From a virus (taxonomy: Duplodnaviria; Heunggongvirae; Uroviricota; Caudoviricetes), in IMG/VR virus record IMGVR_UViG_3300033153_011579: a stretch of 64,000 nucleotides of DNA, one strand, 5' to 3'. The notes below the pieces were generated by a model that saw only the letters and a program-made list of their open reading frames with translations, ran no database searches and was not told the DNA's origin. The number at the start of each line of letters is the position of its first letter. Within the stretch, counting starts at the first letter, position 1. Both the position numbers and the translations under genes were made by a program. Of the stretch, positions 15,529-34,077 are shown one piece after another.

Positions 15529-16487
15529 TGCCGACCAGAGCACACATCCAGGCGTTGGCCAACGCGAGAGAGGCTCTCGAGCCGTTCAGCCGGTGGCTCG
15601 TCCGCGGGTGCGGGAAGACCGATGGAGAGGCCGACTTCATCATCAGCTTCGTGTGTCGCGCGCTGTGGACTTCCACCGCCGACGACGACGAGGATCCCGA
15701 CCCGCTCGATTGCCTCTCCGAGCCGATGATCACCCGGCCGACATTCAACAAGCTGAAATCGGCCATCCGGCAGTATTACACCTGGCACCTCGTCCGGCAG
15801 TCGTCGCCACCGAGTGAGAAAGAGCGGGCGAGGCGGCAGCTCAGGCGGCTCGAATCCATCTTGCCGTACGGCGGCGTCGGGAGACGAGCCAAACGGGTCG
15901 CGATCGATGCGCTGTCGCAGGCGGATTTAAAAAAGCTCATGGACGGACTGAAAAAATGGCACGCGGAACAAGGACGGCGATGGCCCTGGAGCTACCCGGT
16001 GATCAGCATGTGCCTGAAGATCTCGCCGGCGATCAGAAACTGTCTGGTCTACCTCTCTCGTGAGGAGCTCGTCCTCGCTCTCGCCGACGGGGTGAACAGC
16101 GGGTCGTTCAACCTGTGGGTCCGCCAGAAGAACGTGCCGGTCATGAGGTCGATCCCCATCGGGCTCGTCTGGAAAGAGGCGGACATGCTCGTCGGCTGGC
16201 CCTGGCAATGGGAGACGCTCCAGGACATTATCTCGTCGTCCAACGCGAGCACCCAGAACTCGGTGAACAAGATCAAAGAGATCTCTTTCAAGTACTATCG
16301 CCACGTCCTGGGAGACATCGGCGACCCGAAGACGTTCTTAGCTCGACTTCGGTATGCCACCTGGGTCTGGCTCTTGAAAAAGACGAAAGGCGACTGGCTC
16401 TCCGTCGCGCAGATCGTCGGGAAGTCGGTAAAGATCCTCAGAAGACGGCCGGAGCTGCTCGAGGTCGTGTCGAGGAGGCTGAACTAG
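15528..16487 (+). CDS. Recombinase-like protein with degenerate catalytic motifs (319 aa)
   Basis: TGATG coupling; ARLRYATWVWLLKKTKGDWLSVAQIVGKSVKIL resembles the HxLRH...GH box II but lacks His/His/Tyr. Confidence 0.4.
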   Translation: MPTRAHIQALANAREALEPFSRWLVRGCGKTDGEADFIISFVCRALWTSTADDDEDPDPLDCLSEPMITRPTFNKLKSAIRQYYTWHLVRQSSPPSEKERARRQLRRLESILPYGGVGRRAKRVAIDALSQADLKKLMDGLKKWHAEQGRRWPWSYPVISMCLKISPAIRNCLVYLSREELVLALADGVNSGSFNLWVRQKNVPVMRSIPIGLVWKEADMLVGWPWQWETLQDIISSSNASTQNSVNKIKEISFKYYRHVLGDIGDPKTFLARLRYATWVWLLKKTKGDWLSVAQIVGKSVKILRRRPELLEVVSRRLN

Positions 16488-17173
16488 TCCGATACGCAGC
16501 GAGTGTACTGAGACTCGGTCTTGAGAGACCCCCACACATAGGCCTCGGAGAACAGGACGCCCCAGGCGTACGCCGGGTTGTTCCCGGGCGAGCTCGACCA
16601 GTGGTACGACCAGCACGGACCGACAAGGTCATCCCCCCAGTAGCACCCGTCCGACCCGGGGCCTTCCAATTCGGCGCACGGATCGCAGTCGGGACCCTCC
16701 GCGCACGGATTCGTCAGGCAGTCGGGGTCGGTCACCCCGCAGTCTACCGACGCGCAGCCGACGATGATTCCCGACAGCTCCTGGATCAGCGGGAGTCGCC
16801 AGTCGTCGCCGAGGGCCTCGCAGTAGTCGACCGCGTCGACCCAGAGCATGAGCTCGGTGCTCGGCGGGTTCTCCCAGCAGAGGTCGCCGTCTAGCCAGCA
16901 GGTGGCCGTGTCGGTATCGGTGTCGGTATCGGTGTCGGTGTCGGTATCGATCACTGTTTCCGTATTGGTTTCGGTATCTTGCGTGTCTGTGTCGATCACG
17001 GTGTCCGTGTCGGTGTCCGTATCGGTCTCGGTGTCGGTGTCACCGTCGGTGTCCGTGTCCGTGTCGGTGTCCGAATCGACGTCCGTGTCGGTGTCGCCGG
17101 CGTCCGGCTCCATGAACGGAGCCTCGGTATCGCCGCAGGCCATCACAATTGCGAATATCCAAATATATCTCAT
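16484..17173 (-). CDS. Lipoprotein with (Thr-Asp)n repeats and DUF1566 (Lcl C-terminal-like) domain
   Basis: MRYIWIFAIVMACGD lipobox; DTDTDTD tracts; DDWRLPLIQELSGI...YHWSSSP...YAWGVLF...YTRCVSD. Confidence 0.7.
   Translation of the reverse strand: MRYIWIFAIVMACGDTEAPFMEPDAGDTDTDVDSDTDTDTDTDGDTDTETDTDTDTDTVIDTDTQDTETNTETVIDTDTDTDTDTDTDTATCWLDGDLCWENPPSTELMLWVDAVDYCEALGDDWRLPLIQELSGIIVGCASVDCGVTDPDCLTNPCAEGPDCDPCAELEGPGSDGCYWGDDLVGPCWSYHWSSSPGNNPAYAWGVLFSEAYVWGSLKTESQYTRCVSD
16908..17096 (-). repeat. Hexanucleotide-type tandem repeat (GTGTCG/GTATCG) encoding TD/TE/VD repeats
   Basis: gtgtcggtatcggtgtcggtatcggtgtcggtgtcggtatcg... inside 16484..17173. Confidence 0.9.
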
Positions 17174-17174
17174 C

Positions 17175-17420
17175 CTACATCTCCTCCCCATGCTGCAGAG
17201 CTCTCAGGGCCTCCCCGAGGTCCATGAACTCCTCGACCAGGCTGACGTCACCGTCCTCGCCGCCGGGTGCCCAAAGGTCGTACGTCCGGCTCGTCTTGTC
17301 GAATATCACGAAGTCGTCCGGCTCGACCGCCTCGAACACGCCGTCCTTGACGACCCCGGTCACCCGGTACTTCCGGCCTCTCTCGTGAGGATCGCTACTG
17401 AACCAAAATCCAATTTTCAT
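17175..17420 (-). CDS. Hypothetical protein (81 aa), co-transcribed with the lipoprotein
   Basis: ORF track; AGGAG upstream; stop 1 nt from the lipoprotein ATG. Confidence 0.6.
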   Translation of the reverse strand: MKIGFWFSSDPHERGRKYRVTGVVKDGVFEAVEPDDFVIFDKTSRTYDLWAPGGEDGDVSLVEEFMDLGEALRALQHGEEM

Positions 17421-17596: not shown

Positions 17597-18598
17597 CTAA
17601 AAAGGCGTCTTCCGCTCTGCTGCAGCCCTGATCATACCGTCTATCTCGCTCTTCAGCCACTCTCGCTCTCGCTCGGTCGGCTCCCGCCCCTTCACGCGGC
17701 CCGTGAACCACCCCAAATCGGCCTCCCAGTCGTACTCGTCGGCGAACACCCGGACCACCTGCAGCATCCGGTCTTTTACGTGCGCTCGAGTCAACCTCCC
17801 GCGGGAGATCGGCGCAGGCTTCTCCAGCGTCGCCATCAGCCCGCTAGCGGGTATGTATTCCTCGGACTCGTCCGGCTCGTCCTCTGAGGCCTCGTCGGGC
17901 TCGAGAGGCTCAGAATCGCCCTGAGGGGCGCTAGCGCCCTCTTTACATTGTTCACTAACACTGGAATCGGCGTTGACCGCGTTGATCAGGACAACGTGAT
18001 CGTCCAGCTTGTGCCAGAACGCTTGGACGAGTCCAGAGCACATCGCCTCGTCGAGCTTCTCGTCGTCCTCTTGCAGGCCGGACATCATGACCCGCCGAGT
18101 GTCAGGGTAGGTCGCCTCGATCTCACTCAGCAGACCGAGACCAGACATCCCAGGCATCTCGAAGTCGGTGATGACCACGTCGAACGTCCCGAGCTTGTTG
18201 ATGAGCATGATCGCCTGACTCGCCGAGCTCGCCTGGGTCGTCTCCCAGTCTTTGGGGAGAAGCCGGCAGACCGTCCGCCGCATGATGTCCTCGTCGTCGA
18301 CCACGAGGATGCGCAGGCGTCTCTTCGACGTCCTGGCTTCCGGAGGGTTGGTCCAGGCCCGGCACTCGCGAGCGAGGTTGACGTTCCCAACGCGCTCGGA
18401 GGTCGCGTAGACCGTCTCGATCACGGACTGCCAGAGGCCGCTGCAGGACTCGGGAGGTCCCCAGATCTCCTTCGGCCCAGCTCCCTCGATGGAGCTCAGC
18501 AGCCGGCCCTTGATCGTCGGGTCGAACAGCCCCTCTTTGAGAAACTGCATCGCGACCTCGCGAAGCTCGGGGTCCAGTGGTCGTCTAGATTTTGTCAT
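17597..18598 (-). CDS. Response-regulator receiver (REC) domain protein with unknown flanking domains (333 aa)
   Basis: RILVVDDEDIMRR...FDVVITDFEMPGMSGLGLL...RRVMMSG...FWHKL = DD / phospho-Asp / S / K of the CheY fold. Confidence 0.8.
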   Translation of the reverse strand: MTKSRRPLDPELREVAMQFLKEGLFDPTIKGRLLSSIEGAGPKEIWGPPESCSGLWQSVIETVYATSERVGNVNLARECRAWTNPPEARTSKRRLRILVVDDEDIMRRTVCRLLPKDWETTQASSASQAIMLINKLGTFDVVITDFEMPGMSGLGLLSEIEATYPDTRRVMMSGLQEDDEKLDEAMCSGLVQAFWHKLDDHVVLINAVNADSSVSEQCKEGASAPQGDSEPLEPDEASEDEPDESEEYIPASGLMATLEKPAPISRGRLTRAHVKDRMLQVVRVFADEYDWEADLGWFTGRVKGREPTEREREWLKSEIDGMIRAAAERKTPF

Positions 18599-20526: not shown

Positions 20527-20608
20527 CCAGAAAACTCAATGAAATTACGGGGCGGTCGGCCGGAGAGAGGGGCTGAGGTAAGATCTGTTACCGGGGAGGT
20601 GCGATCGG

Positions 20609-21295
20609 TTACATTCCGGCGATAAAAGCTGGCGGGCCAGCCCGCGCCACCAGGATCGGGCCGATCTTCGATCTCTCCCGCTTCACCTTCCGGGTCCTGA
20701 CCTTGGGGCCGAAGGCCGACGTCTTGCAATTCCCGGCCTGGTAGCAGGAGAGGGTCCCGACCAGGCTCCCGTCGCACTCTTCCTCCTGGCACCTCTTGAG
20801 CTCGTCGGTACCGGCCGAGAGCTGGCCCTCGGACGTCTTCATGTCGTAGCCCTTGGACAGAGCCTTTTTCAGAACCTGCCCGTGGACTTGCATCAGGCCT
20901 TGCTCTCCGTCTTTCCCATCTCGGATCTTTTCGTAAAAGCTCGATTCGTGGTCGACGACGACGGCCACCACGAGCGGGTCGACCCCGCGCTCGTCGGCAA
21001 TCCTGTCGATCATCGCCGCGAGCTTCGGAGCTCGCCGAGCTCTCTTCTGGTTGAGGGTGACCTCGATGCAGGCGTCTCGCCCTGGGCCTTCCTTCCGCTT
21101 CTTGCACGACGCGCTCAGAAAGCGCTTGATATAGTCCTCGACGTGGTCGGCTGTGACGAGTTTTTGGCCTCCCCAGACCGACGGCTCGTCACCAAGACCC
21201 TTCGACTCGGTCGGCCACGGGATCATCCAGATGACGATCACCACGAGGATGGCGATCAGTAAAAATAAAAAGAATCTGCCTCGCTTGTTCAGCAT
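20609..21295 (-). CDS. Lytic transglycosylase (SLT domain) with N-terminal signal-anchor
   Basis: FFLFLLIAILVVIVIWMIPW TM; VVDHESSFYEK...GEQGLMQVH = SLT ES...GLMQ motif. Confidence 0.8.
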   Translation of the reverse strand: MLNKRGRFFLFLLIAILVVIVIWMIPWPTESKGLGDEPSVWGGQKLVTADHVEDYIKRFLSASCKKRKEGPGRDACIEVTLNQKRARRAPKLAAMIDRIADERGVDPLVVAVVVDHESSFYEKIRDGKDGEQGLMQVHGQVLKKALSKGYDMKTSEGQLSAGTDELKRCQEEECDGSLVGTLSCYQAGNCKTSAFGPKVRTRKVKRERSKIGPILVARAGPPAFIAGM

Positions 21296-22826: not shown

Positions 22827-23472
22827 CTTCGTCCACCTTCGTGAAGGTTGTTGCCCAGACCCACGGGTTGACGGCCCAACCGAGCCCGCGGGAGAAGTTG
22901 ATCTGGTCCCACAGTATCGCAAACCAGGCGCGCGGGCTATCGTAACTCTTCTCCCAGTCTGGTGGACAGCCCTCGGCGAGGGCGTCCTCGTCGGTGATGA
23001 CGTCGACCCGCTCGAGCCGGATCTTCTTTATGTCGAGGTCGAGTCTCGAATAGATCCGCTTCATGAACAGCGAGGTGGTCCATGGCCCATCGAATTCCGG
23101 GTCGGTCGCGCGCCAGTAGACGCCAGCTCCACCACCGATACTCCAGTGATAAAAGCATTCTTTGACCCAGTAGTGGTCGCCCGAATCCATCCTCGAATAG
23201 ATCCGGTGGCTGGTCCCTTCGAGACCCCACTCATCGTCGGGGCCGATATACGGGAGGTGCAGGTACGGGCCGCCGTTCCCGGCTGGCGAAGGTCCGCCGT
23301 CGGCGTGTGCGTTGTCCCAATCCCAGAGCTCTCGAGGCTTGAGGTGTTTGTACCACGGGCCGCCATCGAAGTAGGAGTTGATGTTCGTGACGACTCGGCG
23401 CGTCTGCGTCTTCCTGCCGGCGATGATCTGCCTGACCATCTCGTCCTTGAAGAGTATCGGTCGCTCGATCAT
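22819..23472 (-). CDS. ASCH-like domain protein (217 aa)
   Basis: MIERPILFKDEMVRQIIAGRKTQTRRVV is an N-terminal motif common in phage ASCH-type proteins; ATGA overlap with upstream gene. Confidence 0.5.
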   Translation of the reverse strand: MIERPILFKDEMVRQIIAGRKTQTRRVVTNINSYFDGGPWYKHLKPRELWDWDNAHADGGPSPAGNGGPYLHLPYIGPDDEWGLEGTSHRIYSRMDSGDHYWVKECFYHWSIGGGAGVYWRATDPEFDGPWTTSLFMKRIYSRLDLDIKKIRLERVDVITDEDALAEGCPPDWEKSYDSPRAWFAILWDQINFSRGLGWAVNPWVWATTFTKVDEDG

Positions 23473-24215
23473 TTTGGAAAATCCTGAGGCCACGGATACT
23501 GCGGGGCCTGCTTGATGAGATTGTCCTTGACAAACACCGGAATATGATGGTCGAGGCACCAGAGACGGATATTCCAGGCCGTCTCTGCCGGGCATTCGAA
23601 CGCGTGCGGCCCAGTCATAGCACCGATTACTACCCAGCCGAGTCCGTCGAGGATCTTCGGGTTGAAGTTCTTCTCGACGAGCGGCTCGAGGCTGATCCAG
23701 TGGATGCCGGCCCTGGTCTCGGCGAGGTCATAGAGGCGATCGTCGGCCTCCCTGTCGTTCGTGGCGCTGACTCCCAGGTGGAGGTTATCGGGCCAGTCGC
23801 CGACGGCGAAGTTCAGCGGCCGCTTCGTCAGCATCAAAAACGTGTGCTGCGGCAGGGCGGTGATGGATTCGAGTATCTTTCGCTGGAGACCGGTCGTGTT
23901 GATCGCCACTTCCTTGGGATCGCCGGTCACTACCCAGCTCTGTGGAGACTCGACGCAGCAGAGGTCGGACATCGACCCGAGGAAGACGCGCTTCGTTTTT
24001 TTAGAACGCGAGAGTTTTGCGAATTCCCTCTCCCAGACGTCCAGGTGGACGGCGGGTGTGAAGGGGGCTAACCCCCTTTGTTTTAATCTCCAGTAAGCTG
24101 TTCCCTTCTTTCCTCCCAGTCTCGCCGCGAAGCGTCGCGCGTAGCAGTATTTACAACCGTTCGTGCAGCCGGTGAACGGGTTTATCGAAATATCGCACCA
24201 TTCGATCTTCGACAT
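23469..24215 (-). CDS. Phage Gp37/Gp68 family (DUF5131) protein
   Basis: MSKIEWCDISINPFTGCTNGCKYCYARRFA...; the track ORF N-terminal extension (Arg/Pro-rich) is rejected. Confidence 0.75.
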   Translation of the reverse strand: MSKIEWCDISINPFTGCTNGCKYCYARRFAARLGGKKGTAYWRLKQRGLAPFTPAVHLDVWEREFAKLSRSKKTKRVFLGSMSDLCCVESPQSWVVTGDPKEVAINTTGLQRKILESITALPQHTFLMLTKRPLNFAVGDWPDNLHLGVSATNDREADDRLYDLAETRAGIHWISLEPLVEKNFNPKILDGLGWVVIGAMTGPHAFECPAETAWNIRLWCLDHHIPVFVKDNLIKQAPQYPWPQDFPK

Positions 24216-24217
24216 CG

Positions 24218-24652
24218 CTACAGCCTTTCCACGACGGCCGCCATGAGGTCGATGACGGTGTCTCCGAGGTCGTCGATCTGAGTTTTGATCTTTTTGAATT
24301 TCTTTTTGAACGTGTTCGCCGAATCTTCGATGTAGCCGACCCGCGACTTGAGCCGATCGATTTTCTTCTCGATATTGCGGTCTCGCCTCTTGGAAGTCTC
24401 GTCGGCCCGCATGACCTGCTCTCGAAAATTCTGGTAGGCCGGACAGTCCGCCCAGCACTCCGGGCTCATTTTTTGCGATTGGGCCCGAGCTCTCGCTATG
24501 TCTTCGCCCGTCTTCTGTAGCGCCAGCTCGAGAGCGTGGTACCTCCCGAGCAGTACCGACTGCCACTGGAAGAGGAAGAACGACCGGTTCAGAGGCGGCA
24601 TTTTCTTCCACTCGTCGAGTTGGATCTCGGTCAGGTTGAGTTTGAAATCCAT
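24218..24652 (-). CDS. Hypothetical coiled-coil protein (144 aa)
   Basis: ORF track. Confidence 0.6.
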   Translation of the reverse strand: MDFKLNLTEIQLDEWKKMPPLNRSFFLFQWQSVLLGRYHALELALQKTGEDIARARAQSQKMSPECWADCPAYQNFREQVMRADETSKRRDRNIEKKIDRLKSRVGYIEDSANTFKKKFKKIKTQIDDLGDTVIDLMAAVVERL

Positions 24653-26062: not shown

Positions 26063-26266
26063 TCAATCCTCCCTCGTATATTTGTCTAAGAGCGCCTGCT
26101 GCTCCTTGGTGAGTTCTTCTCCGATCTGGGTCAGCATGACGACGTGCCAGAACTCGCACATCTCCCGCTGGGCGTCGTCGCACATTATTTGGAACTCGTC
26201 GGTGATCGTCTCGCCTTCTTCGAGCGGCGGCGCTTTGATCTCGACGGTCCAGGTGATCTCAGTCAC
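26063..26266 (-). CDS. Hypothetical protein (67 aa)
   Basis: ORF track. Confidence 0.5.
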   Translation of the reverse strand: MTEITWTVEIKAPPLEEGETITDEFQIMCDDAQREMCEFWHVVMLTQIGEELTKEQQALLDKYTRED

Positions 26267-27368
26267 GGATCACCTCGACGATCCCTTTGGCAGTTGGTGA
26301 CAAGCTCGCGAGGACCGCATCGGCTCCGGTGACCTCCCTGATGTGCGCCAGGAACTTTGCGTCGTCGTCCATCTTCAAGATCTCGCCGCCGTCGAAGAAC
26401 CGAAAGTCGTCGTTGATGAGGTCGAGGCACGTGACGGCCAGCTCCGGGGTTTTCGTCATGATGTAGTCGTCTTTGTAGATGGCGTAGCTGAGCAGGTCGA
26501 GATCCAGGAGGGTCTTCCTAAATGTTCCCTGGGGGCCGTCGTCCGGGTTCTGCTCGTGTGGATTGTCCTTGATGTTGCAGGGGACGATGTCGCTCATCGG
26601 ACCTTTCCCATGCCGCGTCTGGTAAGCGCGGGTGACGAGCACGATCTCCGGCTCGTATCCCATCTCGCAAATATTTTTCGACCCGGTGTTCGTCGGAGTG
26701 ACGTATGGAAAAAAACCAAAATTCTGGTCGAGCAGCAGGCCTTGCGACCCTTCCCAGATAACCGTTTCGAACGAATCGATGACCTGCTCGTTCGACATCC
26801 CGATGGCCGCGTTGTGTGTCACCTCGTCGCACGCGACGAAGAAATTTTGGATGATGTAGTCGTCCGGTCTGAAGCCGTAGTATTGATAAAACTGCTCCAT
26901 CTTCATCCGCATTATTCTCGGGTGGAACAGGTCTTCGAACAGCAGGTGATGACCCTCCCGCTCTCTTTTGACGGTCGCGAAGATTCCGACCTCACAGCTG
27001 CCGCCGAAATCGGAATTCCGCTTATTCCACTCGATTTCAAACGGCGTGGTGACCGGGCACCTGTGGTCGACGAGGAGTCGTGGGAAGACTTTTTTCACCA
27101 GCAAGACGTCGAGCTCGTTCATGAGGGCGACGGGGTTGACCGAGCAGTATTTCGACCAGAAGGTCGGGACGCCTCGGAACGACCCGCTACCGAAATGAGA
27201 AAATACGTGAGACCTACCGTCCTCGAGCACCACCTGATGCGCGGCCTGGTGGCCGCCCGAGAACCGCACCACGAGCTCGGCCTTGTTGACGTCACAGAGG
27301 TAGTCGACCAGATGTCCTTTCCCCTCGTCCCCAAAGCCGAGCCCGATGACAGCGATGTGCTTGGTCAC
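26259..27368 (-). CDS. Short adenylosuccinate-synthetase homologue (PurA family; PurZ candidate)
   Basis: IAVIGLGFGDEGKGHLVDYL, GGHQAAHQ, WEGSQGLLLD...PYVTPTNT, TRHGKGP, TCLDLI parallel the PurA motifs; 369 aa. Confidence 0.85.
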   Translation of the reverse strand: MTKHIAVIGLGFGDEGKGHLVDYLCDVNKAELVVRFSGGHQAAHQVVLEDGRSHVFSHFGSGSFRGVPTFWSKYCSVNPVALMNELDVLLVKKVFPRLLVDHRCPVTTPFEIEWNKRNSDFGGSCEVGIFATVKREREGHHLLFEDLFHPRIMRMKMEQFYQYYGFRPDDYIIQNFFVACDEVTHNAAIGMSNEQVIDSFETVIWEGSQGLLLDQNFGFFPYVTPTNTGSKNICEMGYEPEIVLVTRAYQTRHGKGPMSDIVPCNIKDNPHEQNPDDGPQGTFRKTLLDLDLLSYAIYKDDYIMTKTPELAVTCLDLINDDFRFFDGGEILKMDDDAKFLAHIREVTGADAVLASLSPTAKGIVEVIRD

Positions 27369-28977: not shown

Positions 28978-29164
28978 TTTTTTGTAACTCCTCGTGAGCA
29001 ATCTTCACTCCGCAGCAGACTTCGTAGTATCCGTCGTCGGTAGCGATCTCGGTCAGGCGGTATCCTAACTCTTCCTCTTCCTCGTGGCACGACCCGCAGC
29101 ATCTGGTCTCGAGACCGAATTTTTGTGCCGCTGCCGCACAGCCGCCGAGGTACTTATCAGCCAT
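28970..29164 (-). CDS. Small Cys-rich protein (64 aa)
   Basis: MADKYLGGCAAAAQKFGLETRCCGSCHEEEEELGYRL...YYEVCCGVK; 8-nt overlaps on both sides. Confidence 0.5.
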   Translation of the reverse strand: MADKYLGGCAAAAQKFGLETRCCGSCHEEEEELGYRLTEIATDDGYYEVCCGVKIAHEELQKNG

Positions 29165-29477
29165 CGGACTTCTCGGCGTCCGGCTCTGGGAAGTCGTGCT
29201 GAGTACCAACCATGGTGATGGCCACGAACTCGGCGGCTGGACGGTTGTGGAGGGCGCGTGAGGCTTGCACGAACTCCGGCACGATGCGGCCTTTGAAGTT
29301 GTTCAAAACGGTGGTGCAGAGCCCGTTGCCTTTTTCCTCTTGGTTTTCGAAGTTGAACGACGCGACCATGGGGAGCTGGTGCTCATTGCAGATCGCAATG
29401 ATCTTCGTCATCAGCGGGCTGATCTGCTCGTCGTGCACGGCTTCGAGGTCGAAGTGTTCTTGCTCTTCTTTACTCAT
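29157..29477 (-). CDS. Hypothetical protein (106 aa)
   Basis: ORF track. Confidence 0.55.
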   Translation of the reverse strand: MSKEEQEHFDLEAVHDEQISPLMTKIIAICNEHQLPMVASFNFENQEEKGNGLCTTVLNNFKGRIVPEFVQASRALHNRPAAEFVAITMVGTQHDFPEPDAEKSDG

Positions 29478-29478
29478 C

Positions 29479-30102
29479 TCAAAAGCTCTTCCTACCGGTC
29501 AGCTTCGTGACCAGTTTTCCAATTTCGTCTGGCGTGGGCGCGTCGGGATCCGCCTCGGTCGACCCGGGCAAGAGGTGGGCGTCCTGCGCCGGCCGCAGAC
29601 TCGGGCACAGCACCTGTGCTGCTCCTGCCGTGAGCCGCCCCTTGTCGACCGCGGCCTTGATGGTTGACTCGCGCGAGCTGACGTCGTGCCCCAGGCTGAC
29701 CAGCCACGCGGGCTTCTCGCTCGAGTCTCGCCGGCTCGCGATCTTCTTCCTGTAGATTTCCAAAAACGCAACGCGGGCCGCCACGCGGTCGGTCATCTGG
29801 CGCACCGCCTCGAACGCCTCGGCGATCTCCTGCGTCCAGACGGTCGTGTCGTGCTCGGAGTGCGGGCAGAGGGCCCAGGCCTCTTGTGGGTCCGGCCAGC
29901 CGGTGTCCACCCGCTCGAGGATCGCAGCGAGGGTGAGACGACGGCTCAACTCCCGCCGGCACCGACGAAGCGCGTGCAGCACGACGTCGTCCGGATACAA
30001 GGACAATTCCTCGACCATCTCGGCTGTCGCCGCCTCGGAGAGCTCGGTCGCGCAGATCTCGGCGGTGACCGCCAAGGCGATCACGAGATTACTCTTCTTC
30101 AT
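29479..30102 (-). CDS. Hypothetical replication-module protein (possible helicase-loader-like; 207 aa)
   Basis: MKKSNLVIALAVTAEICATELSEAATAEMVEELSLYPDDVVLHALRRC...; sits directly downstream of the initiator. Confidence 0.35.
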   Translation of the reverse strand: MKKSNLVIALAVTAEICATELSEAATAEMVEELSLYPDDVVLHALRRCRRELSRRLTLAAILERVDTGWPDPQEAWALCPHSEHDTTVWTQEIAEAFEAVRQMTDRVAARVAFLEIYRKKIASRRDSSEKPAWLVSLGHDVSSRESTIKAAVDKGRLTAGAAQVLCPSLRPAQDAHLLPGSTEADPDAPTPDEIGKLVTKLTGRKSF

Positions 30103-31111
30103 CTTCTTCAGCTTTGTATTTGTCGCGGAGTTTTCTCGCGACGTCCCCCGTGGTCGCCCGGCGGTCCGACGCACGCGCCGCGCCGTCGGTTATCTGTGAC
30201 CCGGTGGCCCACTCGGTCCTCACGGTCTCGGCGTCGACGAGCAGGGTGGGGAGGGCGTGGCCCTTCTTCACGTACCAGCCCTTGTTCATCGAGACGTAGT
30301 GCGCAACGACCTGCTCGGCGTCGGCGGCACCCAGGCGCTCGATGATGCGCCTTATGGCCGTGTTGGCCAGCGCGTTGCGCACAGGCGGAGTGCCGTACCG
30401 GAGCTTATAGGCGGCCGAATAGGCCTCCCAAACTCTCCCTGCTATCACCAGCCTCTCCTCCTTCGGCTTCGCCTTCGGTTTTTTCCTAGCTTCAGGTTTT
30501 TTCTCAACCGGGGTCACGGGCGCTTGCGCGCGTGAAGGATCCGGATCTCTCCCGTCGGGTTCCCCTCCGGGATCCCTTTCTGGATCTGGATCTGCCTCTG
30601 ATCTCTGCCTCTGCTTCTGCCTCTGCCTCTGCATGGCGTTACTATCGTTACTGGGCGTTACAGGGGGGTTACTAGGTGTTACATCAGCGTTACCAAGCGT
30701 TACATCAGCGTTACCATTACCTTTTTCATCCTCTTTTTTCCTCTCCCTGTACCTCCTTACCCTCTCAGCGGTTTTTTCTCGCCTATCGTCCGCCGAGCAC
30801 AGCTGCCGGTACTTCTCGCTGTTCAGCACCTTCCAGCCGCCGTCCACCGGGGCGATCCGCCGGCCCTCGTAATCCGGGGTCCTCGAGTGCTCGTCTGGAC
30901 TCATCAGCCGCTCGAGAGCTTCTTTGCAAAGGTCGAGGTCCACCCGCGCCTCGTGGGAGAGGCCGGGGACGCTCGCGCTCACGATCCCGTCTCTGTCCAT
31001 CAGCGCGAGCATCGTGATCCACACCAACCGGACGTGGTCCTCTTCGCAAACCCAGATCGACGACTGGAGAATCGAACTGTGCAACTTCGTAAAACCTCTG
31101 GTCATGGACAC
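30089..31111 (-). CDS. Phage replication initiator / replisome-organizer-like protein
   Basis: TKLHSSILQSSIWVCEEDHVRLVWITMLALMDRDGIV N-terminal motif; iteron array embedded mid-gene. Confidence 0.65.
   Translation of the reverse strand: MSMTRGFTKLHSSILQSSIWVCEEDHVRLVWITMLALMDRDGIVSASVPGLSHEARVDLDLCKEALERLMSPDEHSRTPDYEGRRIAPVDGGWKVLNSEKYRQLCSADDRREKTAERVRRYRERKKEDEKGNGNADVTLGNADVTPSNPPVTPSNDSNAMQRQRQKQRQRSEADPDPERDPGGEPDGRDPDPSRAQAPVTPVEKKPEARKKPKAKPKEERLVIAGRVWEAYSAAYKLRYGTPPVRNALANTAIRRIIERLGAADAEQVVAHYVSMNKGWYVKKGHALPTLLVDAETVRTEWATGSQITDGAARASDRRATTGDVARKLRDKYKAEEDEEE
30538..30603. repeat. Cluster of six GATC sites
   Basis: GATC at 30538, 30544, 30571, 30583, 30589 and 30600, within 66 bp next to the iterons. 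Confidence 0.8.
30636..30714. repeat. Eight phased GYGTTAC iterons (putative replication origin)
   Basis: GTTAC at 30638, 30647, 30657, 30668, 30678, 30689, 30699 and 30710 (spacing 9-11 bp); flanked by a CTGCCTCTG repeat tract and a pyrimidine-rich tract. Confidence 0.7.
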
Positions 31112-31130
31112 CAGTGTCCTTTCTTGAACT

Positions 31131-31382
31131 TCAGCTTTCAGATCCGTAGGTGTCTTTCATGTATTGACGAAGCAACGTCTCGAGCTTCCCGAGCTCCCGC
31201 TTCGACGTCGTTACCGCCGCCGGCCAGTTTGACCAGAACTCCTTTAGCTCCTCGAAGAGCAGCACACTCGCCGGCGACCCCCGGTTCACGATGCGCAGCA
31301 GCACGGTCAAAATTCGCAGGTTTGTTTTCGTCAGCATGGCCTTGAACGCCATCGCCGTATCGATCTTGTCCATGAACCCCAT
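31131..31382 (-). CDS. Hypothetical protein (83 aa)
   Basis: ORF track. Confidence 0.5.
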   Translation of the reverse strand: MGFMDKIDTAMAFKAMLTKTNLRILTVLLRIVNRGSPASVLLFEELKEFWSNWPAAVTTSKRELGKLETLLRQYMKDTYGSES

Positions 31383-31390
31383 GCGTCACC

Positions 31391-31651
31391 TCACCCTACC
31401 GGCCGCTTGGATCCGGTATCTCCGTAAATACTGATCGACGGCATGATGATCACCGACCAGTTCTGCCGGTAGTCGATCCCACCATCGCGCCACTTGTACT
31501 GAAAACCCCACGCCACATTCGGGCTGTTGAGCATCTCGGCCTGCATCGACTCGTTGTCGATCAGCGCGGCCATCGTCTGATGCGGCCCGAACCTCCCGAC
31601 CAGCTCGTCGACCAGCGGCTGGAGCTCAGCGTCCTTCGTTGCCAACCCCAT
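31391..31651 (-). CDS. Hypothetical protein (86 aa)
   Basis: ORF track. Confidence 0.5.
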   Translation of the reverse strand: MGLATKDAELQPLVDELVGRFGPHQTMAALIDNESMQAEMLNSPNVAWGFQYKWRDGGIDYRQNWSVIIMPSISIYGDTGSKRPVG

Positions 31652-31833
31652 CAGGAGACCTCCCCACCGAGGGTTTTGACCTTGCCCTCGATCAGGATGA
31701 TCCTCTTCGCCTGCTTCTCGTTGACCTTCTTGTACTCGCGGATCGCGGTGTCCCGCTGGTCGACCTGCTCCTTGAGGTTGGCGATCTTCTCGCGCTGGTT
31801 TTTTGCAAGCTTCTCTCTCGTGTTCATCGACAT
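31651..31833 (-). CDS. Hypothetical coiled-coil protein (60 aa)
   Basis: ORF track; start sits in the 19-nt junction also found at 32168-32186. Confidence 0.5.
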   Translation of the reverse strand: MSMNTREKLAKNQREKIANLKEQVDQRDTAIREYKKVNEKQAKRIILIEGKVKTLGGEVS

Positions 31834-31834
31834 C

Positions 31835-32173
31835 TCAGTCCTCCTCTGCGATCCGCTTGGCCACGCACAACTCCTCGGCCTGGCGCAGGGCCTTGGTCAT
31901 CGCCACGGAGTGGTCCAACTTGCCCATCTCCTTTAACGCCTGGATTAGTCCGTACTTCGATTGGGACACGCACACCGCCGCGTGCTTGCACGCCGACAAC
32001 TGGACGTCGAGGTCGTGCATCCCGGCTACCAGGGCCGCCACGTCGTCCTCGAGCGCGTCCACGTCGGCCTTGGCATTTTTTAAAACGTTCATGGTGACAC
32101 CAGCGTAGGTGGCCGAGGCAACCGCCAGCAAGACCATCACCGACAGCGCAACCTGTAAACTCGATCTCGACAT
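31835..32173 (-). CDS. Secreted coiled-coil protein (112 aa)
   Basis: MSRSSLQVALSVMVLLAVASATYA signal-like N-terminus. Confidence 0.5.
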   Translation of the reverse strand: MSRSSLQVALSVMVLLAVASATYAGVTMNVLKNAKADVDALEDDVAALVAGMHDLDVQLSACKHAAVCVSQSKYGLIQALKEMGKLDHSVAMTKALRQAEELCVAKRIAEED

Positions 32174-32174
32174 C

Positions 32175-32462
32175 TCAGTCCTCCTCGTTTCCTTTGCTGA
32201 CCGACGGACACCCAATCATGATGAGCTCCGCCCTGATCTCGGCCTTCAACTTGATCTTTCGGAGTAGCTCGCTGAGAGGATCACAGGCTAACCCAATCAA
32301 AAAGCTTTTTTCCGGGTGGTCGACGAGAATTATGGCGAGACCAGAGATCGACTTCAGCGCATGGTCGGCCAGCGGGCCCACCATCGGGTCGTCGGCGATC
32401 ATCGCTAACGCCTCCTCGGTCAACTCCGGTAGGTCCCGTCCCTTGATGTCGTCCAGACTCAT
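32175..32462 (-). CDS. Hypothetical protein (95 aa)
   Basis: ORF track. Confidence 0.5.
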   Translation of the reverse strand: MSLDDIKGRDLPELTEEALAMIADDPMVGPLADHALKSISGLAIILVDHPEKSFLIGLACDPLSELLRKIKLKAEIRAELIMIGCPSVSKGNEED

Positions 32463-32836
32463 AGTGAGGCCTCCTCACTTTCTGCGCAGGCCAGCCAGCG
32501 CTCCCACAGGTCGTCGTTCGCTCTCGACAGGTCGCGCACTATCTCCGCGCACTCCTCCCGACACGTCTCGATGGTCGGGGCGGCTGCCGCCTCGATGCAC
32601 AGCCGGAACTCTCGCGAGCGACACTCTTCGGACTGAGTCCTCGAGTAGTCGTGGGCCGAGCCGGGGCAGATCTCGTCGACCACCTCACCACACGTCTTCT
32701 CGATCGGCTCCGGGCAGTCGGTCTCGCACCGAGGAACGAAGAACGTTGCGATGACACAGCCGACCGCGATGCCGATGATCATGAACACGATGGCCAGCGC
32801 GATCATGCCGCCCTCTGTCAGTTTTCCGTCAGCCAT
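32459..32836 (-). CDS. N-terminally anchored Cys-rich protein, paralogue of 8684..9052
   Basis: TM MIALAIVFMIIGIAVGCVIATFFV; TIETCREECAEIVRDLSRANDDLWERWLAC. Confidence 0.6.
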   Translation of the reverse strand: MADGKLTEGGMIALAIVFMIIGIAVGCVIATFFVPRCETDCPEPIEKTCGEVVDEICPGSAHDYSRTQSEECRSREFRLCIEAAAAPTIETCREECAEIVRDLSRANDDLWERWLACAESEEASL

Positions 32837-32839
32837 GAC

Positions 32840-33718
32840 CTACCTCTTGGCCGGCGACACTACAGGAATCGAGCTCCCCTCGCCCGTGGCGATGACCTTG
32901 TCGCCGGGCCCGACGCGTTTATAAAGCGTCTTCTTGGCTTCGATCTCTCGCAGCGCAAGGTACTTGTCGGTGAGCGCGCCCCCCATGATCTTCACGTAGA
33001 CCGCCTCGGACTCCGCCTCGGCCGTCCTGACCGCCTTCATCTTCTCGGCGACCTTCAGCCGGTTGTCGGCCTGGAGCAGCTCCATCGCCTGCTTCGCCTT
33101 CTCCTCGTCGATCTCGATCTCTCGCCGGCGCTTCTTTTCGACGGCCTTGGTGATGACCTCCGGGTAGTCGAAGTTCGAGGTGACGACGCTCACGAGCTGC
33201 ATCGGCGTCCCCTTCAGCGAGGCGTGCAGCTGCTTGTGAATCTCTTTCTGGATCGCGTCCCGGTTTTCTCTGATCTGCGTCGTCGAGTATTTGCTCACGA
33301 TGCCACGCGCGATCGACCGAGCCTCGGGCTTCACGTACACGTTGTACAAGCTCTCGAACCCGAGTGCCGCCGCGTCGTACTCATCCCATCGCTCCATCTT
33401 CGACCCCTGGCGATTCAGGAGCTCCTTGATCGCAGATCCGTCTGCCGAGACCAGCCGCGTCCTCGTCACCAAATTGAACCTGAAGTTCAGGTCGTCCGAG
33501 CACAGGACGCTCATCTTCTCCTCGATGGCGTCCTCCTTCGTGTCGACCAGCTGCATCGAGTCGCGACCCCAGCACCCGTGGTGACCGGGTTGTAACACCT
33601 CGCCCGTCAGCCCTCCCGGGGTCTGTACCATCCCCACCCAGCCCGCAGGAACTACCTCGTTGCAACCGATGACCAAAAACGCCGCCAGGAACATTCCCAA
33701 AACACATGCTGATTTCAT
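32840..33718 (-). CDS. SPFH (band-7/prohibitin-like) domain lipoprotein
   Basis: MKSACVLGMFLAAFLVIGC lipobox; SPFH core followed by a coiled coil (EKKRRREIEIDEEKAKQAMELLQADNRLKVAEKMKAVRTAEAESEA). Confidence 0.75.
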   Translation of the reverse strand: MKSACVLGMFLAAFLVIGCNEVVPAGWVGMVQTPGGLTGEVLQPGHHGCWGRDSMQLVDTKEDAIEEKMSVLCSDDLNFRFNLVTRTRLVSADGSAIKELLNRQGSKMERWDEYDAAALGFESLYNVYVKPEARSIARGIVSKYSTTQIRENRDAIQKEIHKQLHASLKGTPMQLVSVVTSNFDYPEVITKAVEKKRRREIEIDEEKAKQAMELLQADNRLKVAEKMKAVRTAEAESEAVYVKIMGGALTDKYLALREIEAKKTLYKRVGPGDKVIATGEGSSIPVVSPAKR

Positions 33719-34077
33719 TGCCGAGCCTCTCTTTCTTCGGTGGTGAAGTCCACCTTGGAGCCACCGCGAACGCACGCGATGACTTGTTTGAGTTCTGCGA
33801 TCACAAACCGACCGAGACCGATCCTGTCGAGGTCGATGATGAGGGGCGGTGTCGTGTAGCCACGATCGTTGATCCTCACACGGAAGTTAACCCAGTCGCC
33901 GACCTTCACCCTGGTAAACCACCCGCGCACGGCGACCACCTCCCCGCGGAGGGTGTTTGTTTTCTCCGAGAATTTATCTCCGCAGTCGTCGGCGTGGATC
34001 CGCACGATCATCGACTTTCTCGGCATCGACGTGACGATGCCCTTGATGTCCTCCCTCTGAATTTCTCTATCGGCCAT
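33715..34077 (-). CDS. Hypothetical protein (120 aa), translationally coupled to the SPFH gene
   Basis: ATGA overlap with the SPFH start; GEVVAVRGWFTRVKVGDWVNFRV strand-rich segment. Confidence 0.5.
   Translation of the reverse strand: MADREIQREDIKGIVTSMPRKSMIVRIHADDCGDKFSEKTNTLRGEVVAVRGWFTRVKVGDWVNFRVRINDRGYTTPPLIIDLDRIGLGRFVIAELKQVIACVRGGSKVDFTTEEREARQ

Follow-up and report, generated by a model that had tools for sequence, protein, structure and literature searches.

In phage lambda, the replication origin is located inside the gene of its own initiator: ori-lambda, in the middle of O, combines iterons with an AT-rich tract (PMC7466680). The origins of Staphylococcus pathogenicity islands (SaPIs) carry penta- or hexanucleotide iterons, present in 6-12 copies, which are read by the winged helix of the initiator beside an AT-rich region (PMC9371898). 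In the DnaA-trios of bacterial oriC, which form part of a basal unwinding system, and in the DnaD recognition element, a short motif repeated with strict period stands beside duplex binding sites, and once the duplex is open it is recognised on a single strand (PMC6669920, PMC8287927, PMC10201434). Here we describe a locus in a 64,000-nucleotide stretch of tailed-virus DNA (Caudoviricetes; IMG/VR virus record IMGVR_UViG_3300033153_011579), which we call the window. Judged from its sequence and from that of its relatives, positions 30579-30760 are likely to be a phage replication origin that lies within the initiator gene itself, in the part encoding a disordered linker.

Results

Repeat elements within a putative initiator gene

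The candidate origin and the genes around it comprise the following features (coordinates in the window, strand, description):

30089..31111, minus: initiator gene, 340 amino acids from the GTG at 31111 (open reading frame with 915 homologues)
30821..31111, minus: winged-helix coding region, amino acids 1-97
30719..30820, minus: coding region of the long basic helix, amino acids 98-131 (...DDRREKTAERVRRYRERKKEDEKG), a helix in the AlphaFold2 model
30710..30760, no strand assigned: tract that is polypurine on the coding strand and polypyrimidine on plus, AT-rich, of low stability, abutting the last box
30636..30714, minus: eight GTAAC(GC) boxes (GTTAC on plus), one every 9-11 bp, seen from positions, repeat finding and simulations; putative initiator sites
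30579..30632, minus: nine CAGANN hexamers (TCTGNN on plus), translated as QRQRQKQRQRSEADP; found by repeat finding, the conserved hexamer array of the family
30538..30603, no strand assigned: six GATC, probably a by-product of CAGATC/GGATCC repeat variants
30089..30469, minus: coding region of the helical C-terminal domain, amino acids 215-340, from AlphaFold2 and tblastn; putative partner-binding domain
29479..30102, minus: downstream partner gene (phrog_6028) at the lambda P position, its ATG overlapping the initiator end by 14 nt
20582..20613, minus: two GTAACnGATC, 21 bp apart, in the short interval that follows the SLT lysozyme gene, whose stop is at 20609

On the plus strand, the eight GTTAC boxes start at 30638, 30647, 30657, 30668, 30678, 30689, 30699 and 30710, exactly where a first-pass annotation of the window had placed them. 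Their spacings are 9, 10, 11, 10, 11, 10 and 11 bp, with a mean of 10.3. The longer form GYGTTAC attributed to them holds for six of the eight (as G[CT]GTTAC), while the bare GTTAC is present in all. GTTAC occurs 28 times and GTAAC 19 times in the whole window, and the cluster puts eight copies into 77 bp; the maximum reached in 300 first-order Markov simulations of the window was three per 80 bp. Tandem Repeats Finder (TRF) reports the array with a 21-bp period and 3.9 copies, and it may equally be described as about four 21-bp iterons of two half-sites each, which would be putative binding sites of the initiator.

Next to the boxes, the CTGCCTCTG tract noted by the first-pass annotation is present; a more accurate description is of nine TCTG spaced by 6 nt, with a single step of 7 nt, over 30579-30632. 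TRF detects a period-6 TCTGCC array at 30591-30632, which is extended from 30579 by TCTGGA units, and no second TCTG run of this kind occurs on either strand of the 64 kb. Far from being a minor feature, this tract turns out to be more widely conserved than any other DNA element in the family described below. On the other side, the pyrimidine-rich and AT-rich tract is borne out: the plus strand is 78-90% pyrimidine over 30700-30760, and 30710-30739 lies at the 99.8th percentile of the least stable 30-mers of the window (-34.4 kcal/mol, where the mean is -44.1). The low-complexity peptide first quoted for the region was correct; the gene that encodes it, however, is on the minus strand, so that the coding-strand forms are GTAAC(GC) for the boxes and CAGANN for the hexamers.

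The AlphaFold model of the protein shows a winged helix-turn-helix at residues ~20-97, a basic helix at 98-131, an unconfident segment at 132-215 and a helical C-terminal domain at 217-339. Boxes, hexamers and the GATC cluster all fall within 132-215, the sole low-confidence segment between the two folded domains, as expected from the idea of a linker that tolerates a DNA signal. Homology makes the ATG at 31105 (M-T-R-G-F-T-K-L) the likely true start of the gene. A perfect palindrome, GGACACcaGTGTCC, lies directly upstream at 31106-31119 and abuts this ATG; an operator and a translational hairpin are possible roles. A scan of 29000-32500 against Rfam returned nothing, and an RNA element is not indicated.

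Constraint on the repeats at the DNA level

The eight GTTAC boxes are a DNA signal and not a protein repeat, and the hexamers are likewise constrained as DNA; in both cases the constraint is independent of the encoded protein. On the coding strand, three boxes are read as GTA-ACN (Val-Thr) and five as NGT-AAC (Gly-Asn or Ser-Asn), so that the same five bases are read in two frames within one array. The codons of the array are rare ones by the usage of the window's genes: every Val is GTA (7%), every Ser AGT (6%) and every Gly GGT (16%), while the next Val-Thr downstream, outside the array, is an ordinary GTG-ACC. The box spacing, which alternates between 10 and 11 bp and gives 21 bp per pair, tracks the DNA helix and not the codon. 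In the polypurine tract, all four Arg codons are AGG, a codon used for 14% of Arg in the window's genes, and this choice renders the coding strand nearly pure purine.

For the hexamers, a corresponding measure comes from 15 GC-rich related loci chosen at the protein level. In their (A[E/D])n repeats, Ala is encoded by GCA in 66 of 66 codons, against 84 of 475 (18%) elsewhere in the same genes. These observations call for caution in annotation, as the AEAEAE, QKQKQK or VTPSN 'low-complexity linkers' of phage initiators can shadow DNA signals.

Recurrence of the layout in a large family

A profile search of 1.84 billion representative sequences recovered the N-terminal domain of the initiator in 12,541 clusters (50% identity) at E <= 1e-3, and in 10,469 at E <= 1e-10. 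We collected 121 related loci, 80 from viral contigs and 41 from genomes, and located the N-domain in 99 of them. The genome loci are mostly from metagenome-assembled genomes (MAGs) of Verrucomicrobia, Acidobacteria, Planctomycetes, Proteobacteria and candidate phyla. A common order emerges: winged helix, long basic helix, boxes spaced by ~10.5 bp, (CAGANN)n array, and a variable C-domain.

Phased boxes were defined as a 6-mer repeated at least three times after the basic helix, with all spacings near multiples of 10.5 bp. They are found in 66 of the 99 loci; among 4776 control segments, taken from the same loci, 129 (2.7%) have them. Each sublineage has its own box type: GTAACGC is the commonest, and others include GTCAACA, GTTGACA, GTGGACA, ATGTCCC, AGTAGA, GGGACA and GTCGAAG. 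Spacings are 9-12, 20-21 or 30-31 bp, and the GTAACGC arrays reach 10 copies with strict 10/11-bp alternation and alternating frames. Palindromic boxes, GTAACGCGTTAC, occur in locus L001. In two loci (L057 and L115), boxes (GTTAC) and hexamers (TCTG) are both on the strand opposite the gene; as the order of boxes then hexamers is kept, this is not a simple inversion of a whole cassette.

Hexamer arrays, defined as at least three consecutive CAGA at 6-nt spacing, are present in 63 of the 99 loci (74 if one miss is allowed), directly after the boxes and 120-280 nt past the N-domain. Elsewhere in those loci, a single CAGA run was found in 877 kb. The units vary (GCAGAG, GCAGAA, TACAGA, TGCAGA, ACACAG) with CAGA retained, and so does the reading: 54 arrays are framed xCA-GAx and encode AE, TD or AD; three are framed CAG-Axx and encode QK or QR, as in the window; and six lie on the opposite strand and encode SV, LP or SA. 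In L101, L114, L098 and L054, hexamers without CAGA, namely (AAAAGC)5, (AGCTCC)4, (CACCAA)n and (CTACAA)n, stand ~130-190 nt past the N-domain. Their presence at the same position indicates that the 6-nt periodicity is more general than the CAGA motif. Loss of the CAGA arrays was not seen to co-vary with changes in the conserved SRTPDxEGRR motif. An AT-rich unwinding element was considered as a hallmark of the family and dropped, the family-averaged dip in stability being moderate. We found nothing in the literature on this family, in terms of GTAAC iterons or hexanucleotide arrays in phage origins.

A candidate reader of the boxes

Where the box sequence changes among the relatives, the basic helix encoded just ahead of the boxes changes with it, and the winged helix does not. 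The clearest case is a pair of IMG/VR contigs, 3300027734_000641 (L064) and 3300032247_000312 (L038), which are ~90% identical in nucleotides over more than 6 kb; a third locus, L046, is closely like L038. The two initiators are 100% identical over residues 1-102, which include the whole winged helix, and 96% identical from the hexamer array to the protein end, the array itself being unchanged. Between these parts, ~150 nt spanning the basic helix and the boxes have been replaced (L064:6305-6465 against L038:6305-6447), with GTAACGC x10 in the former and ATGTCCC x7 in the latter. A second, less clean pair (L040 against L063/L069) also has different boxes, with 88% identity in the winged helix and 50% in the basic helix.

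Over all pairs of the 66 phased loci, a shared box type is predicted by identity of the 26-residue helix with an area under the curve (AUC) of 0.85, and by winged-helix identity with an AUC of 0.68. Among pairs whose winged helices are at least 85% identical, helix identity is 0.91 where the boxes match and 0.52 where they differ. Examining the winged helix column by column for residues that tell box types apart gave just a few weak columns, and it was this negative result that led us to examine the basic helix.

The repeat-encoded peptide was also considered as the DNA reader, and set aside, since the same GTAACGC box encodes different peptides in L001 (GNAGNAL) and L009 (VTPCNA). The helices of these two loci have a common motif, N-x-E-[RK]-Q-[RK]-R-x-R-E, which makes the basic helix the better candidate. 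We infer that the basic helix is the sequence reader of the boxes and the winged helix a conserved scaffold.

Replication-module context

Direct annotation of the gene is weak: the named match is PHROG 2447, 'replication initiation protein', at E = 1.2e-5, and the C-terminal part matches the unnamed phrog_11527 at E = 5e-18. The identity of a replication initiator, which the first-pass annotation had taken as given, therefore needed the evidence of synteny.

In tblastn searches, residues 227-335 of the C-domain are 38-49% identical to the C-terminal part of proteins annotated as replication initiation proteins in the Ralstonia phages Gerry, Claudette and Gervaise, and of the 'replication initiation protein O' of Pseudomonas phage LESphi3, whose gene order cI-cro-ant-O-X-ninG-Q is the lambdoid layout. 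The partner gene that follows the initiator in the window is 40% identical (E = 2e-33) to LESphi3 X, the gene after O, and 43% identical (E = 1e-46) to Gerry gp67; its family, phrog_6028, is without recognisable function. Initiator and partner overlap by exactly 14 nt in all three phages (window 30089-30102; Gerry, L125:4359-4372; LESphi3, L126:3338-3351), which suggests conserved translational coupling. Across the 121 related loci, the partner is found solely together with a C-domain of the window's type. In 24 of these loci, the N-domain end is followed at 0.55-2.4 kb by a gene of the DnaB family, which is directly adjacent in L122.

The annotated initiators of both phages also contain repeats in mid-gene: ~6 tandem 34-nt copies with the 17-bp ACCCCnGCAGnAAATGC in LESphi3 O (L126:2761-2911), and three copies of the 18-bp AAGGGGAAGGGAATATGG in Gerry gp68 (L125:3831-3884). 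These are likely to be embedded origins as well, unannotated in the records. We know of no experimental test of the initiator/partner pairs of LESphi3 and Gerry.

Discussion

A possible mechanism

In the mechanism we propose, initiator molecules would occupy the eight GTAAC(GC) boxes in a row along a single face of the DNA, through contacts of the basic helix, the invariant winged helix serving as a scaffold or as a second DNA contact. The resulting nucleoprotein complex would open the duplex beside the box array, either at the polypurine tract (30710-30760) on one side or at the (CAGANN)9 array on the other. The C-domain would then recruit the product of the overlapping downstream gene, which would bring the helicase. 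A tblastn search found no DnaB homologue in the window, and the helicase would thus presumably be that of the host.

The two candidate opening sites have different merits. The polypurine tract is the least stable DNA of the window and lies on the N-terminal side of the boxes. What the family conserves where lambda has its AT-rich tract is the hexamer array, whose stability is only moderately low. A period of 6 nt is too tight for domains of ~100 residues to bind side by side on a duplex; it fits recognition of a single strand, as with the DnaA-trios or the DnaD recognition element. Alternatively, the hexamers might stabilise the opened repeat through slipped strands, or provide the complementary strand with a series of CTG start sites for primase; E. 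coli DnaG prefers CTG.

A bolder proposal, which as a joint claim we regard as possible but rather unlikely, is that the family embodies a novel origin grammar: a swappable specificity cassette of ~150 bp combined with a universal (CAGANN)n element. In the cassette, DNA encoding a basic-helix reading head that resembles a basic leucine zipper (bZIP) would be contiguous with the array of sites that it reads, so that one recombination would change the specificity of initiator and origin together, an event that L064 and L038 seem to illustrate. The (CAGANN)n element, in any frame or on either strand, would act as a strand-specific landing pad or unwinding element for the winged helix, the helicase or the primase, a 6-nt counterpart of the DnaA-trios.

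Weighing the evidence for an origin

The first-pass proposal of a lambda-like origin inside the initiator gene finds good comparative support in the layout, the constraint at the DNA level, the recurrence in ~100 relatives and the replication-module context, although it is not proven.

Several results weigh against it. The cumulative GC skew, which had been named as a check, has no inflection at 30.6 kb; its turning points, at ~16 kb and ~45 kb, coincide with switches of gene orientation, and as the skew follows gene orientation it is uninformative about the origin. Besides the weak direct annotation, Pfam and NCBIfam searches with the initiator gave no meaningful match, only noise at E < 0.1. 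In tblastn searches with either the window sequence or the family consensus, the N-domain had no relative among 50,697 deposited phage genomes and 72,556 plasmids, and the family has no characterised member. Phylogeny and physical linkage confound the covariation of helix and boxes, which depends mostly on a single clean swap together with a weaker pair, and in the swaps the repeat-encoded peptide changes as well. As to the hexamers, 54 of the 57 same-strand arrays encode [A/T/S][E/D] dipeptides, a skew of frame behind which there may be some protein-level preference or simple inheritance. Finally, the family's hexamers are often GC-rich (GCAGAG), and on family average the box-plus-hexamer region reaches only the 70th-81st percentile of low duplex stability.

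Alternative explanations

The alternative that survives best, though we consider it unlikely, is that the boxes bind an initiator-like protein for another function in cis, such as autoregulation, an operator, copy-number handcuffing, centromere-like partition or packaging, the protein being perhaps a regulator. The fold matches of the protein are mostly transcription regulators (CRP, MarR, CggR), some C-domain homologues are annotated as 'transcriptional regulator' or 'HTH protein', and short phased repeat arrays also occur in partition sites. There is, in addition, a second small site in the window: the related pair first reported at 20574-20615 exists, as GATCnGTTAC at 20582 and 20603. By our own rough estimate, ~0.08 occurrences of two same-strand GTAAC at phased spacing are expected by chance, and the shared GATC flank makes a chance origin less likely still. 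The pair may be a secondary binding site or a coincidence, and its membership in the system is uncertain. Its second copy overlaps the stop codon of the SLT lysozyme gene, and the pair has the orientation of the origin boxes with a different flank. Against such other functions, the gene stands at the O position of a lambdoid layout, its C-domain and overlapping partner are common to annotated O proteins, and DnaB directly follows in many loci. Moreover, the sites are within an open reading frame and not at a promoter, no sigma-70-like site having been found by a promoter scan near the repeats, and no ParA/ParB-type gene was noticed among the neighbouring genes, which were partly scanned.

Quite improbable, in our assessment, is an origin regulated by Dam and SeqA, in which the clustered GATC would be functional sites of methylation and sequestration. 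The first-pass annotation had suggested such regulation, and the six positions it gave (30538, 30544, 30571, 30583, 30589 and 30600) are all exact; six GATC in 66 bp beside the repeats form the densest 70-bp cluster of the window. Among the relatives, L124 carries Dam-family methylase genes downstream, and a few others, such as L094 and L091, have GATC-rich arrays. The cluster stands out little from its background, however: the window has 497 GATC in all, about double what its composition predicts (46-77 in every 8-kb bin against ~28 expected), and six copies within 70 bp were reached in 9 of 300 Markov simulations (3%), which makes the cluster marginally unusual. The family as a whole has no enrichment, with 4.56 GATC per kb at the candidate origin position against 5.34 per kb elsewhere and none at all in 40 of 99 loci. 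No Dam-type methylase was found in the 64-kb window, either as a DPPY motif in plausible frames or by tblastn with Dam, D12 and N6_N4 queries. The six GATC are probably a by-product of repeat variants, incidental to the origin and no separate element. Another tetranucleotide, CTAG, is strongly depleted across the window, with 1-8 copies per 8 kb.

It is highly improbable that the hexamer microsatellite, and perhaps the boxes, persist as recombination junctions for the exchange of N- and C-terminal halves and not as origin elements. The array does mark the exact point where the conserved N-half gives way to C-domains that are freely exchanged, and the swap between L064 and L038 ends at its start. 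Nevertheless, second-order selection for evolvability is weak, and neither the retention of CAGA in differing units (GCAGAG, TACAGA, TGCAGA), nor the inverted arrays, nor the helical phasing of the boxes would be explained; exchange at the array is, besides, compatible with origin function and may be a side effect of it.

Least credible is a low-complexity protein linker produced by replication slippage, kept if at all for its peptide and without function in cis: predicted disorder, copy numbers that differ among close relatives (4 to 6 AE units in L009-L020) and the acidic dipeptides of 54 in 57 same-strand arrays would suit it, but not one 5-7-bp box in two frames per array and in other frames in other loci, rare codons throughout the array, the exclusive GCA in repeat Ala codons, spacings of 10/11, 21 and 31 bp that follow the helical repeat and are no multiple of 3, hexamers also read as QK/QR, IQ, SV, LP and SA and on the opposite strand, or boxes that are DNA palindromes, as in L001.

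Implications

If an embedded origin is indeed what these repeats represent, they provide an experimentally testable origin and initiator for a very large group of phages, as large as the 12,541 clusters of the N-domain. The gene is carried by MAGs and prophages of Verrucomicrobia, Acidobacteria, Planctomycetes, Proteobacteria, candidate phyla and others, and has neither a cultured representative nor a Pfam model. A helix encoded side by side with its sites would constitute a small, portable specificity module, which could explain how replication incompatibility types diversify and could serve in building orthogonal replicons. The hexamer array, for its part, would offer a clean system for studying how origins that have no AT-rich unwinding element open.

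Other genes of the window

Elsewhere in the window, all on the minus strand, a purA (adenylosuccinate synthetase) homologue at 26259-27368 (Pfam Adenylsucc_synt, E = 1e-39) is a possible auxiliary metabolic gene in a phage-like region. Unusual cargo includes an Lcl_C-domain protein (16484-17191), a response-regulator receiver-domain protein (17597-18598), a DUF5131/radical-SAM-like protein (23469-24611) and an SPFH/Band-7 protein (32840-33775).

Comparison with known systems

The basic helix resembles the basic region (N-x7-R) of eukaryotic bZIP proteins, and this is a resemblance only. It is long, continuous and basic, and many members with GTAAC-type boxes have N-x-E-[RK]-Q-[RK]-R-x-R, in the N-x7-R register; the half-site of PAR-type bZIP proteins is GTAAY. 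It differs in that there is no Pfam bZIP match, that the helix of the window has T in place of N, and that no leucine zipper is evident.

The match in fold to the initiators of iteron plasmids (RepA, RepE, pi, TrfA) is one that winged helices give in general, and higher scores go to CRP-type regulators. The protein of the window has a single winged helix and a basic helix, and not two winged helices, and its putative origin is inside the gene. SaPI origins are closer in having short boxes and a winged helix, both of which are present here. They lie downstream of rep, however, whereas the repeats of the window are inside the gene; their iterons flank an AT-rich centre in opposite orientations, whereas the eight boxes have one orientation; and SaPI Rep is a helicase, whereas the initiator of the window has no helicase or ATPase domain. 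The DnaA-trios offer a proposed functional analogy for (CAGANN)n through their positional logic, with the differences that the period here is 6 nt and not 3, that the motif is CAGA, and that the initiator has no AAA+ domain.

The initiator/partner pairs of LESphi3 (P31_24/25) and Gerry (gp68/gp67) are related to that of the window in the C-domain of the initiator, in a downstream gene that is 40-43% identical, in the 14-nt overlap and in the presence of mid-gene repeats. The N-terminal halves and repeats of their initiators are unrelated to those of the window, and a repeat scan of the two initiator genes reported no CAGA hexamer array.

The closest design is that of ori-lambda, as found in lambda, in P22 gene 18 and in Stx phages. 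In lambda as in the window, the origin (a putative one here) sits in the middle of the gene that encodes the initiator, and the linker there joins an N-terminal DNA-binding part to a C-terminal part, by which (here putatively) the product of the next gene is recruited; repeated sites, again putative here, stand beside a strand-asymmetric tract that opens, or in the window would open, easily; and the initiator gene is followed by that of its partner. The N-domain, however, has no sequence relationship to lambda O and no match to Pfam Phage_rep_O, and in view of the negative Pfam and NCBIfam searches, the initiator of the window is an analogue of lambda O in design and not a member of its family. 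Where lambda has four to six iterons of ~19 bp, there are here boxes of 5-7 bp every 10-11 bp; what co-varies with the sites is a bZIP-like basic helix and not a globular domain; and a conserved (CAGANN)n takes the place of the AT-rich tract. The principle of the embedded origin is old, and what is new is the protein family, the cassette of helix and boxes, and the near-universal hexamer array.

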